A stretch of 64,000 nt of DNA, taken from the NCBI RefSeq assembly GCF_056746865.1, contig NZ_CM163382.1; one strand, 5' to 3'. The notes below the pieces were generated by a model. The model had not been told where the DNA came from, searched no databases, and saw nothing but the letters and a program-made list of their open reading frames with translations. This document shows, piece by piece, positions 11,416 to 12,301 of this stretch. The stretch's first letter is position 1. Each line of letters opens with the position of its first letter. The position numbers and the translations under genes were made by a program.

Positions 11416-11903
11416 TCTGTTATTCTCCTGTATTATTACTTCACCAGCCAGAACGGTAGTGCGGAGCAAAAATACAGTGATAAGAATCCTCTTTTATTAA
11501 TTTAATAATGCCAGGAATATTATTGTGTATAATATGCGACCTCAATTTAAGCAGCAGAAAACGACTGGCATTAAAATCATTAAATTATAAACATATACAA
11601 CTTTGTAAAGGTGGTTATAATAAACCTGATTACTTTAACGTCTGTATACCTGCACTGCTGATATCACAAAACAATAAAAATCCTGGTTAATATCTCTGAT
11701 GATTGAATGAGAAATTCACGATGTCTGGTGAGAATTCTGTTCAAAACGAGGAATGCAGACGTACATGTGGCAGGCATGGACTTCTACCAATTTAACTTTT
11801 TTCCTTCCTTGTATTTACACATTGCACATTTTGCGCTACAAAAATTTCACGTGGCACGCACCACGTGATCCGTAGAAAAGCCTCTTGTTACGAATTTCGT
11901 AAA

Positions 11904-11936
11904 CCGCACGTCTGTCTGGTCGTGCGGATTTTTTAT
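11904..11936 (+). terminator. candidate rho-independent terminator (CCGCACG...CGTGCGG then T-run)
   Basis: Inverted repeat followed by ATTTTTTAT read directly; same structure in copy B near 46500. Confidence 0.4.
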
Positions 11937-12154
11937 CCGTCAACTTCACATGAAACCCGCCAGAGCACTGTTTCCGGATTCAGACATCAGGCATATTATT
12001 ATCCACGATGTCGTGAACAAGATCACACTTTTGCAATTCCTTTATTGATCGAAAGCAGTTAATCACGGAAATTAATTACCGGAGTGAAAGCATTTGCTAT
12101 ATAAACATTCCCAGAAGACATCTTCATGTTGAATATTATTCCCTTATTGACTAG

Positions 12155-12188
12155 CCCCTCTGACAGAATTTCAGAGGGGGTTTTTTAT
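12155..12188 (+). terminator. candidate rho-independent terminator (CCCCTCTGA-loop-TCAGAGGGG then TTTTTTAT)
   Basis: Read directly; conserved in copy B near 46755. Confidence 0.45.
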
Positions 12189-12301
12189 CAGTTTCACCAT
12201 CCAACCCTGTACGCCAGAATGGTTTCACTGTCACTCAGTTCTGCTATTGCCTTTTTCATCTCCCTTTACCTTACGTTCTGCCAGAGTCTGAGCCATTTGA
12301 A

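Follow-up and report, generated by a model that had tools for sequence, protein, structure and literature searches.

The stretch of about 780 bp between the ATG (11415) of a minus-strand gene for a trimeric autotransporter adhesin (TAA) and the last 28 codons of an orf-191/DUF4376 gene (12194–12277) is the upstream border of an adhesin cassette, or 'moron', derived from a lambda-like prophage. Three sites in this border have the form of an intrinsic terminator, a G+C-rich stem-loop followed by a T-run, two on the plus strand and one on the minus strand, and we consider it somewhat probable that these three strong hairpins act as a bidirectional transcription insulator at the edge of the moron. 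Judged by their sequences, all three would terminate transcription in vivo. Positions are those of the window, the whole stretch of 64,000 nucleotides of DNA that was analysed, and the landmarks of the border are as follows.

10849–11415, minus strand: 5' part of the YadA-like TAA gene, copy 1; its intact paralogue has a YadA anchor
11560–11660, no strand: hypervariable patch A, with two alleles about 60% alike
11837–11868, minus strand: palindrome and T-run, TCACGTGGTGCGTGCCACGTGA then AATTTTTGT, a predicted TAA-sense intrinsic terminator
11888–11902, no strand: small hairpin, TTACGA-ATT-TCGTAA, flanked by the two facing terminators (sequence, folding)
11904–11934, plus strand: terminator 1 (predicted), CCGCACG (11904–11910), a 10-nt loop, CGTGCGG (11921–11927) and ATTTTTT; −14.3 kcal/mol
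12095–12150, no strand: hypervariable patch B, with at least three unrelated alleles, one of them 26 nt shorter
12155–12186, plus strand: terminator 2 (predicted), CCCCTCTGA (12155–12163), a 7-nt loop, TCAGAGGGG (12171–12179) and GTTTTTT; −16.6 kcal/mol
12194–12277, minus strand: remnant of orf-191/DUF4376, a gene of the phage tail-fibre region, comprising its last 28 codons with the stop (tblastn)
12266–12442, minus strand: tnpA of the IS66 family, N-terminal fragment; its junction with the orf-191 remnant is at about 12268

The segment at 12194–12277 is a leftover of the ancestral prophage. By tblastn it shows 89% identity to residues 165–192 of the intact 191-aa gene on metagenome contig L030, and orf-191A, C, D and E of the P-Eib prophages have about 70% nucleotide identity to the orf-191 found here. 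Three metagenome contigs (L030, L008 and L037) keep the intact order of lom, tail fibre, orf-191, gap, TAA and HTH gene; in this ancestral order all genes lie on one strand and the non-coding stretch from orf-191 to the TAA gene measures about 730 bp. In the window, everything beyond the last 28 orf-191 codons has been lost to the IS66 fragment, which is the truncation point of the prophage and, in copy 1, also the recombination junction with the SPATE region. IS66 has likewise removed the tail operon from most E. coli islands, as it has in the window, and the HTH gene of the cassette is split by IS elements in the window. Copy 1 of the TAA gene, whose likely start is the ATG at 11415–11413 preceded by CAGGAGA, is interrupted at about 10850 by a sul2-strA-strB insertion; the paralogue at 44242–46008 (minus strand) is intact and carries the YadA anchor domain (E = 3.7e-16).

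A terminator layout upstream of the adhesin gene is already seen at the E. coli Eib adhesin genes. P-EibA/C/D/E (ECOR-9; AF151091, AF151674-6), PhiR5_1 and GER2 share the order tail fibre, orf-191, gap, TAA and HTH-like ORF, with a non-coding gap of 360–800 bp in the P-Eib loci and related phages, and in P-EibA and P-EibC the SPATE-like autotransporter gene eaa comes after the cassette. The likeness extends to an antisense-facing terminator directly past the orf-191 stop, to a second one further in within the P-EibA class, and to a sense-strand stem-loop upstream of the adhesin gene that is annotated in the GenBank records. As in Eib-type cassettes, orf-191 lies upstream together with lambdoid tail-fibre genes on the intact contigs, and the TAA gene is followed by an ORF-156-like gene: the HTH protein (151 aa) is collinear with ORF-156A, a weak match at 21% identity and a pairwise E of 2e-4. 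In contrast, the gaps have no detectable nucleotide similarity, the cassette in the window lies outside a prophage, in IS-rich islands, and the adhesin passenger is not Eib-like. Because only its membrane anchor matches solved structures, with no match to the EibD chains in that comparison, the locus is a positional relative and not an eib gene.

We compared the border with 49 IMG/VR loci that carry orf-191 homologues and with phage records. An antisense-facing hairpin with a T-run lies 1–11 nt after the orf-191 stop in about eight of about ten sequence classes, formed by at least seven unrelated hairpin sequences, and this holds for TAA and other cargo alike. Terminator 2, which begins 6–8 nt past the stop codon of the orf-191 remnant and is directed against that minus-strand gene, is of a type that is generic after orf-191 homologues in many lambdoid prophages, a feature of the phage-to-cargo border and not of the adhesin. 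Several classes have a second antisense terminator 135–324 nt further in (the P-EibA class; 262–290 nt in the O157-like class), the corresponding distance in the window being 260–284 nt, and in most TAA-bearing loci the gap between orf-191 and the adhesin gene also contains a terminator or stem-loop on the sense strand. The inter-terminator regions of the other orf-191 classes showed no sequence similarity to the region here. At the equivalent spot of phage lambda, after tfa, there is a hairpin that lacks the canonical T-run.

The two plus-strand hairpins with T-runs had been described in the earlier note as pointing away from the adhesin gene, and both are there in that orientation and have the form of intrinsic terminators. 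A consensus terminator scan returned two terminator-like sites against 0.7 ± 0.7 expected; it missed hairpin 1 only because the loop is 10 nt long, and the energy listed for that hairpin comes from a separate scan. The pattern of the stems occurs twice in the window and in none of 100 shuffles, and had no match in 100,044 species representatives. On the plus strand, the segment 11846–11942 folds with z = −3.2, and none of 200 shuffles was as stable.

The palindrome that the same note had reported, CACGTGG-CACGCA-CCACGTG, stands after a small correction of its coordinates, at 11848–11867, or 11847–11868 with the flanking T/A pair. Since AATTTTTGT follows it on the minus strand, the palindrome is itself terminator-like on the strand of the adhesin gene, 432 nt upstream of the start codon. 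Its stem has nine pairs, five of them G-C (−14.2 kcal/mol), and minus-strand folding gives z = −3.9. A minus-strand terminator is thus the better reading of the palindrome; a protein site, or a segment of a plus-strand RNA, fits it less well. The minus-strand terminator nature of the palindrome had gone unremarked in the earlier note.

As an insulator, the cluster would work in both directions. The minus-strand terminator (11868–11837) would stop RNA polymerase arriving from the tail-fibre side, so that the adhesin would be expressed only from its own promoter, proposed to lie near 11545–11517. The plus-strand terminators (11904–11934 and 12155–12186) would halt transcripts begun in the A/T-rich DNA around the adhesin promoter, or crossing the cassette in antisense, before they enter the tail genes antisense, and short plus-strand RNAs ending at these terminators would probably be made as a consequence. 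By definition, morons are insertions into phage operons that are usually expressed independently (PMC2629481). For an insulator to have a role, however, there must be transcription to block, and the plus-strand promoters predicted at 11594–11621 and 11814–11842 do not rise above the shuffled background. Moreover, with the tail operon gone from the window, the plus-strand terminators may now be relics. The promoter candidates of the region are the following.

11517–11545, minus strand: best candidate TAA promoter, TTGAGG-17-TAATAT (PWM scan, 10.5 bits)
11594–11621, plus strand: promoter-like site TATACA-16-TATAAT, in this allele of patch A (PWM, 8.9 bits)
11814–11842, plus strand: candidate promoter TTTACA-17-TACAAA (PWM, 6.2 bits)
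12045–12073: candidate promoter (PWM, 7.5 bits)

The candidate TAA promoter would place the transcription start at about 11510 and give a 5' UTR of about 95 nt. It is the best of the region, yet does not exceed the shuffled maximum of the PWM scan. It overlaps an A/T inverted repeat, ATATTAT-TGTGT-ATAATAT (11517–11535), is identical in both copies of the locus, and its position matches stem_loop annotations about 100–140 nt upstream of eibA and eibD. The earlier note's idea of a regulatory leader does not fit this arrangement, because the hairpins that it described lie on the opposite strand and 360–640 nt upstream of the candidate promoter (11545–11517). One could still imagine that the adhesin mRNA has a long 5' leader spanning the whole block, begun near 12150 or in the tail operon, with the palindrome as a regulated attenuator that would be relieved by, for example, an antiterminator or the HTH protein of the cassette; the hairpin and T-run on the strand of the adhesin would suit this, as would the long gaps conserved upstream of the TAA gene in Eib-type loci. 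We regard such a leader as very improbable. The strongest candidate promoter is situated on the adhesin side of the palindrome, downstream of it, the PWM scan gave no minus-strand promoter of note within 11870–12150, an alternative anti-terminator pairing was not found, and the two plus-strand terminators would be left unexplained. In addition, 168 bp of upstream sequence served to drive the expression of eibG from a plasmid (bioRxiv 10.64898/2025.12.25.695649).

The three GATC sites noted earlier are present, at 11867, 12021 and 12047, but their number is at chance level (3 against 1.6 expected in 491 nt; P(≥3) = 0.22). Dam methylation at GATC sites underlies the phase-variation switches of pap fimbriae and agn43, and the likeness lies in GATC sites upstream of a surface adhesin gene on a horizontally acquired island. 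Here, however, the sites are 320–630 nt upstream of the candidate promoter, with spacings of 154 and 26 nt that match neither system. With the count at chance and every site at least 320 nt from the candidate promoter, we rejected a Dam/GATC phase switch. A Gin/Cin-type invertase half-site picked out by eye (GTAAACCG), matching at 8/12 and 4/12 positions, was likewise rejected as chance.

A small RNA had also been proposed for this region, but no Rfam match, no promoter above shuffled controls and no covariation came forward for it. Searches with Rfam 15, over the whole window at the gathering score and over 11300–12600 at E ≤ 10, gave no credible match, and the same spot in 12 related loci gave none. 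In this A/T-rich DNA the promoter scan scored 36 sites at 5 bits or more and shuffled sequence gave 40, so that the hits match the controls in number and strength, and a sequence that hardly varies offers no covariation. Either plus-strand terminator, or both, could nevertheless be the 3' ends of genuine prophage-type small RNAs that base-pair with adhesin or host genes, a possibility that we hold only tentatively. The first candidate would be an RNA of about 88 nt from the promoter at 11814–11842, folding into three hairpins (11849–11934). The second would have 50–110 nt and end at 12186, with a 5' part formed by the hypervariable patch B and a conserved 3' part. Together with a minus-strand transcript ending at the palindrome, the plus-strand RNA would form a convergent pair that overlaps at the 3' ends.

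Several features speak for such RNAs. Both terminators have tails of six U, 11846–11942 folds as three hairpins, and TTTACA-17-TACAAA lies at the right distance. The arrangement of an antisense terminator, about 230–260 nt and another antisense terminator recurs in the unrelated O157-like class. Lambdoid prophages of EHEC encode both convergent, Hfq-bound small-RNA pairs at moron borders and anti-sRNAs of 51–60 nt with variable 5' and conserved 3' ends (PMC4104026; Sp5 was checked as an example), and phage P22 carries the sar antisense RNA inside a late-operon moron (PMC2629481). On the other hand, the promoter scores are ordinary for A/T-rich DNA, that of the 88-nt RNA included; variants with an 82-nt deletion lack the 11814–11842 promoter and yet keep the hairpins; the region has no similarity to the Sp5 small-RNA region (AsxR/EcOnc27) or to the inter-terminator regions of other classes; and predicted duplexes of the candidate RNAs with the 5' region of the adhesin gene gave no guidance, the structures being unrealistic for long sequences.

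The fuller version of this idea, in which the cluster is a convergent 3'-overlapping small-RNA pair accompanied by a second plus-strand RNA of EHEC anti-sRNA-like design with patch B as its 5' end, seems to us unlikely. It draws on AsxR/EcOnc02 with EcOnc27, and on AgvB (Tree et al. 2014, PMC4104026), which likewise occupy a short non-coding border between phage backbone and cargo, with terminators that face each other on opposite strands and with a conserved 3' terminator behind a variable 5' part, comparable to terminator 2 and patch B. The EHEC RNAs, however, which were shown by Hfq cross-linking and Northern blots, are encoded downstream of PR', on the 3' side of the moron gene (PMC4104026), whereas the putative site here follows the tail genes and lies 5' of the cargo gene. 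Their terminators also stand tail-to-tail with no overlap, and the transcripts here would overlap by about 90 nt. P22 sar resembles the present case as a small-RNA gene in a late-operon moron (immI, the 'ant moron') that is antisense to flanking phage genes (PMC2629481). Unlike sar, which overlaps the ribosome-binding region of its target ant (PMC2629481), the plus-strand hairpins here leave the start of adhesin translation free, and 360 nt or more separate them from the candidate promoter of the adhesin gene. As antisense terminators recur at this position in many lambdoid prophages, such a small-RNA pair, if real, would mark a second conserved site besides the one after PR'. Should transcripts ending at these terminators prove stable and chaperone-bound, they would point to an unexplored small-RNA site beside a tail-fibre cargo locus.

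Coding by the small ORFs of the block was rejected. None of the ten has a Pfam or PHROG match, substitutions in them are few and mostly non-synonymous, and frameshift and deletion variants exist. The 65-codon ORF, already thought unlikely to be coding in the earlier note, has as relatives only E. coli hypothetical-protein calls and no family match, and its '58% identical' match comes from an error-ridden assembly. We give hardly any credence to a small-protein gene or a type I toxin-antitoxin pair within the block. Its coding sequence would be a hydrophobic minus-strand ORF of 26 codons (12026–11946; MILFTTSWIIICLMSESGNSALAGFM), preceded by AGGA 9 nt before its GTG start, with a plus-strand antisense RNA overlapping its 3' UTR. 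Type I toxin-antitoxin systems of the 3'-overlapping kind have convergent, overlapping terminators, an architecture that the facing hairpins resemble. Against this stand the GTG start codon itself, the lack of a Pfam or PHROG family for any of the ten ORFs, and the non-synonymous nature of both substitutions in the 26-codon ORF. A 1-nt deletion (L004) or the 82-nt deletion disrupts further small ORFs, and only the plus-strand ORFs of 60 and 65 codons have ever been called, as E. coli hypothetical proteins.

We found no homologue of the block outside E. coli in genome, plasmid, phage and metagenome searches. Matches by blastn to E. coli genomes all had 90–100% identity, the plasmid search gave one identical match, again in E. 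coli, and the phage search for the DNA block gave none. A 21-mer search of metagenomes returned 27 near-identical loci, and a search of viral contigs for the palindrome returned one. The unannotated stretch of about 780 bp occurs in about 7% of complete E. coli genomes, often in several copies. Its carriers include E. coli EF5-18-41 and APEC IMT5155, in which L282_2501 is the locus of the 65-aa ORF. The HTH protein has relatives only at 92% identity or more, nearly all in E. coli with one Salmonella record, and was absent from the phage records searched.

Every homologous copy that we looked at retains the hairpins. The columns of 11840–11960 do not vary at all among 28 distinct sequences, across which the palindrome is invariant, and terminator 1 does not vary across the E. 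coli and metagenome copies. We attribute this near-invariance to recent common descent, and it is not evidence of selection. Terminator 2, directly 5' of which lies patch B on the plus strand, keeps its stem across three unrelated patch B alleles and shows, in a comparison of six alleles, one compensatory change from C-G to A-U at the stem base. Metagenome variant L037 has two uncompensated arm changes, and in both L020 and L037 the 82-nt deletion takes out the T-run of the minus-strand terminator, which would thus be dispensable in some hosts.

The hairpins might also be inert relics of a decayed prophage, functionless today and merely carried along with the adhesin gene. The loss of the tail operon to IS66, the youth and near-clonality of the block and the existence of deletion variants all favour this, but we find it very improbable, because many intact prophage loci preserve the same terminator layout although their sequences are unrelated and because terminator 2 survives the replacement of the adjacent patch, compensatory pair included. 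If the hairpins are indeed a bidirectional insulator, the finding is an ordinary one: it shows a prophage cargo gene kept transcriptionally independent of the tail operon, by a border that travels with the adhesin cassette after the phage has decayed. For annotation, the stretch of about 780 bp can be given the label of a prophage-derived border, containing three predicted terminators and an orf-191 remnant, in place of hypothetical ORFs. That many lambdoid prophages have an antisense terminator directly past orf-191 is an observation of modest general interest.

The earlier note had stated that the same layout recurs upstream of the second adhesin gene, and this second copy is indeed found, at 46440–46781, with the orf-191 remnant beyond it.

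46440–46461: palindrome, second copy
46497–46527: terminator 1 (predicted), second copy
46749–46781: terminator 2 (predicted), second copy
46789–46872: orf-191 remnant, second copy

This second terminator cluster thus lies upstream of the intact minus-strand TAA gene.

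The palindrome, the GATC sites, the two hairpins with T-runs and the second copy of the layout that the earlier note had described upstream of the adhesin gene were all found in the sequence:

11848-11867, palindrome CACGTGG-CACGCA-CCACGTG
11904-11934, plus strand, terminator 1, hairpin and T-run with stems CCGCACG/CGTGCGG
12155-12186, plus strand, terminator 2, hairpin and T-run with stems CCCCTCTGA/TCAGAGGGG
11867, 12021 and 12047, GATC sites
12266-12442, IS66-family tnpA fragment, right of the non-coding block
46440-46781, second occurrence of the palindrome and two-hairpin layout

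The hairpins exceed chance expectation: the pattern combining the stems occurs twice in the window and in none of 100 shuffles, and z-scores for folding were -3.2 for 11846-11942 and -3.9 for the palindrome. The three GATC sites are ordinary (1.6 expected, P = 0.22). Because AATTTTTGT comes directly after the palindrome on the minus strand, the palindrome is terminator-like on the adhesin's own strand, a property that the earlier note overlooked.

On three metagenome contigs (L008, L030 and L037), the right flank of the block holds an intact 191-aa DUF4376 gene and no IS66. A lom-like gene and a 426-aa tail-fibre gene lie 5' of this gene, all on the adhesin's strand, and 3' of the adhesin is an HTH gene of 151 aa with a resemblance to sigma region 4. 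The final 28 codons of the same 191-aa gene survive in the window at 12194-12277 and 46789-46872, which identifies the block as the stretch separating a cargo adhesin from the last tail-region gene of a lambdoid prophage. DNA identity of the 191-aa gene to orf-191A/C/D/E, from the E. coli ECOR-9 prophages P-EibA, C, D and E, is ~70%, and the GenBank records of these prophages give the same arrangement: J, lom, orf-401, orf-191, gap, eib (a trimeric autotransporter adhesin, TAA), orf-156 and orf-60, followed in P-EibA and P-EibC by a SPATE-like eaa gene. Phages PhiR5_1 and GER2 have gene order in common with the P-Eib loci, and ORF-156A aligns over its full length with the 151-aa HTH protein (21% identity). 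The region is an unannotated, terminator-bounded gap upstream of an adhesin cassette, of the known Eib-type prophage kind. The window adhesin was ruled out as an Eib protein, since its anchor alone matches solved structures; further EibG-like clades (Cla, Yal) occupy distinct genomic contexts (bioRxiv 10.64898/2025.12.25.695649).

Hairpins with T-runs were scanned for on both strands 3' of orf-191 homologues in 49 IMG/VR loci and phage records. About eight of about ten sequence classes carry a terminator facing against orf-191, 1-11 nt past its stop; these abutting terminators comprise at least seven unrelated hairpin sequences and occur with TAA and non-TAA cargo alike. Terminator 2 is the form that this generic border element takes in the window. 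A second antisense-facing terminator lies further in, at 135-154 nt in the P-EibA class (304-324 nt in its loci L046 and L090), 262-290 nt in an O157-like class with non-TAA cargo and 260-284 nt in the window (terminator 1). Ahead of the adhesin promoter, most TAA-bearing loci carry a terminator or stem-loop on the sense strand as well; the palindrome is the window's example. The terminator 2 stem is kept across three unrelated alleles of the adjoining patch (12095-12150), with one compensatory pair, C-G to A-U. Architecture is thus conserved where sequence is not, the best available evidence that the hairpins are functional terminators; that they are inert relics finds little support. The earlier note had proposed hairpin conservation in homologous regions as a check, and the layout is indeed kept across related loci.

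The most economical reading, drawn throughout from sequence and in our judgement slightly better than an even chance, is a bidirectional insulator at the border of a moron, that is, of a cargo insertion in a phage operon. Independent expression is usual for morons by definition (PMC2629481). The minus-strand terminator would halt read-through arriving from the tail-fibre side, and adhesin expression would then rely on its own promoter, for which TTGAGG-17-TAATAT (11545-11517, 5' UTR of ~95 nt) is the leading candidate; there is little to support a long leader with an attenuator. Plasmid expression of eibG was driven by 168 bp of upstream sequence (bioRxiv 10.64898/2025.12.25.695649). The two plus-strand terminators would halt transcription exiting the A/T-rich cassette (37% G+C versus 49% for the window) before it enters the tail genes in antisense.

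Less probably, the hairpins belong to one or more small RNAs at the moron border, for which lambdoid prophages offer a real precedent: EHEC has convergent Hfq-bound small RNA pairs at such borders, and its anti-sRNAs of 51-60 nt vary at the 5' end and are conserved at the 3' end (PMC4104026). The variable patch followed by terminator 2 resembles that design, and from a candidate promoter at 11814-11842 (TTTACA-17-TACAAA) an ~88-nt RNA with three hairpins would arise. However, the candidate promoters score no better than shuffled sequence, the block has no Rfam match even at E ≤ 10, and an 82-nt deletion on two independent metagenome contigs (L020 and L037) removes this promoter and the T-run of the minus-strand terminator while the hairpins stay. 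The two terminators of the Sp5 small RNA pair face each other tail-to-tail, whereas the predicted plus and minus transcripts of the window would overlap by ~90 nt, since each runs through the hairpin of the other; the Sp5 region and the block have no sequence in common. Of the regulatory module envisaged in the earlier note, the terminators and the conserved layout stand, so that its interpretation is supported in part; the regulatory RNA or leader is hypothetical.

Of 5,426 complete E. coli genomes, 370 carry the block (11680-12200), with as many as eight occurrences in one genome; identity is 90-100%, and nothing is annotated beneath it. It occurs on one E. coli plasmid, and near-identical copies lie on 27 metagenome contigs; it was not found by a four-stem pattern search in representative genomes of 100,044 species, nor in phage records. 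No Pfam or PHROG family matched any of ten small ORFs, and the 65-codon ORF, rightly considered unlikely to be coding, is called solely as a hypothetical protein in E. coli; a small protein or type I toxin-antitoxin pair likewise finds little support. One supposed homologue of the 65-aa ORF, '58% identical', proved spurious, deriving from the error-ridden assembly GCA_019430965.1, whose contigs (L035 and L036) have many homopolymer-length errors and fragmented TAA, HTH and other genes.

Among 28 distinct sequences, 11840-11960 has no variable columns, so covariation offers no test, and the invariance stems from recent common descent and does not demonstrate selection. The hypervariable patches 11560-11660 and 12095-12150 show ~60% identity with sharp bounds inside 98-100% identical sequence, the latter with at least three alleles, one 26 nt shorter. 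Alleles of both reassort among strains, which suggests recombination with diverged cassettes. The 82-nt deletion lies between direct CACGTGGCA repeats, equivalent to window 11766-11847, and alleles lacking C at 11767 have no left repeat; on L037, one arm of the palindrome and one arm of terminator 1 each carry a single change too.

The two adhesin copies, YadA-like TAAs on the minus strand, are near-identical from ~11332 to 12290 except in these patches, and their passenger domains differ strongly. The intact one is copy 2 (44242-46008), which encodes a YadA anchor and contains a tandem array of a 99-nt unit (44711-45483; six 33-aa copies, four of them 99-100% identical). Homologues in other strains range from 388 to 555 aa, so this array is a probable source of variation in stalk length. 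Copy 1 (start ATG 11415) is interrupted near 10850 by a sul2/aph(3'')-Ib/aph(6)-Id (sul2-strA-strB) resistance cluster at 8093-10850, and ~190 codons remain; many E. coli chromosomes share this junction (L001, L003, L005 and L006), in some cases accompanied by tet(A) and ISCR2. A 1291-aa SPATE (Peptidase_S6) autotransporter gene adjoins copy 1 (12268-16715), the junction lying within IS66 tnpA. SPATE regions in other strains match from 12270 or 12528 (best matches 100% identity) and adjoin IS66 or IS3 elements, so recombination between IS66 copies gave rise to the right flank of copy 1. The pairing of adhesin and SPATE echoes eibA-eaaA of P-EibA.

Beside copy 2 (41043-44154), the 151-aa HTH gene normally 3' of the TAA gene is split into residues 1-75 (42831-42607) and 73-151 (41279-41043), with a DDE transposase gene (43036-44154) between it and the TAA gene. 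A frameshifted ProQ/FinO-family gene (47054-47454), annotated as a pseudogene in every E. coli island examined, lies just past the IS66 fragment of copy 2; an RNA chaperone gene beside terminator-rich non-coding DNA is suggestive, and lies outside the ancestral prophage context.

Six O157-like prophages with non-TAA cargo (L042, L080, L053, L055, L058 and L069, from IMG/VR and phage phiSTEC1589-Stx1c) share a conserved ~230-nt element including ...ACTTCCGGAAATCTGAAAAATTATCCATATCAACAGGATGC..., within the first 300 nt past the orf-191 stop and upstream of the antisense terminator abutting orf-191. In four of the six (L042, L080, L053 and L055), the second antisense terminator is on its far side. 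With no Rfam match and no consistent ORF in these loci, the element is itself a candidate locus for an antisense RNA. Matches to Rfam sok, the hok/sok antitoxin RNA, score above the gathering threshold ~2-2.6 kb upstream of the orf-191 homologue on three prophage contigs (L053 916-1073, L058 970-1128 and L045 1541-1698).
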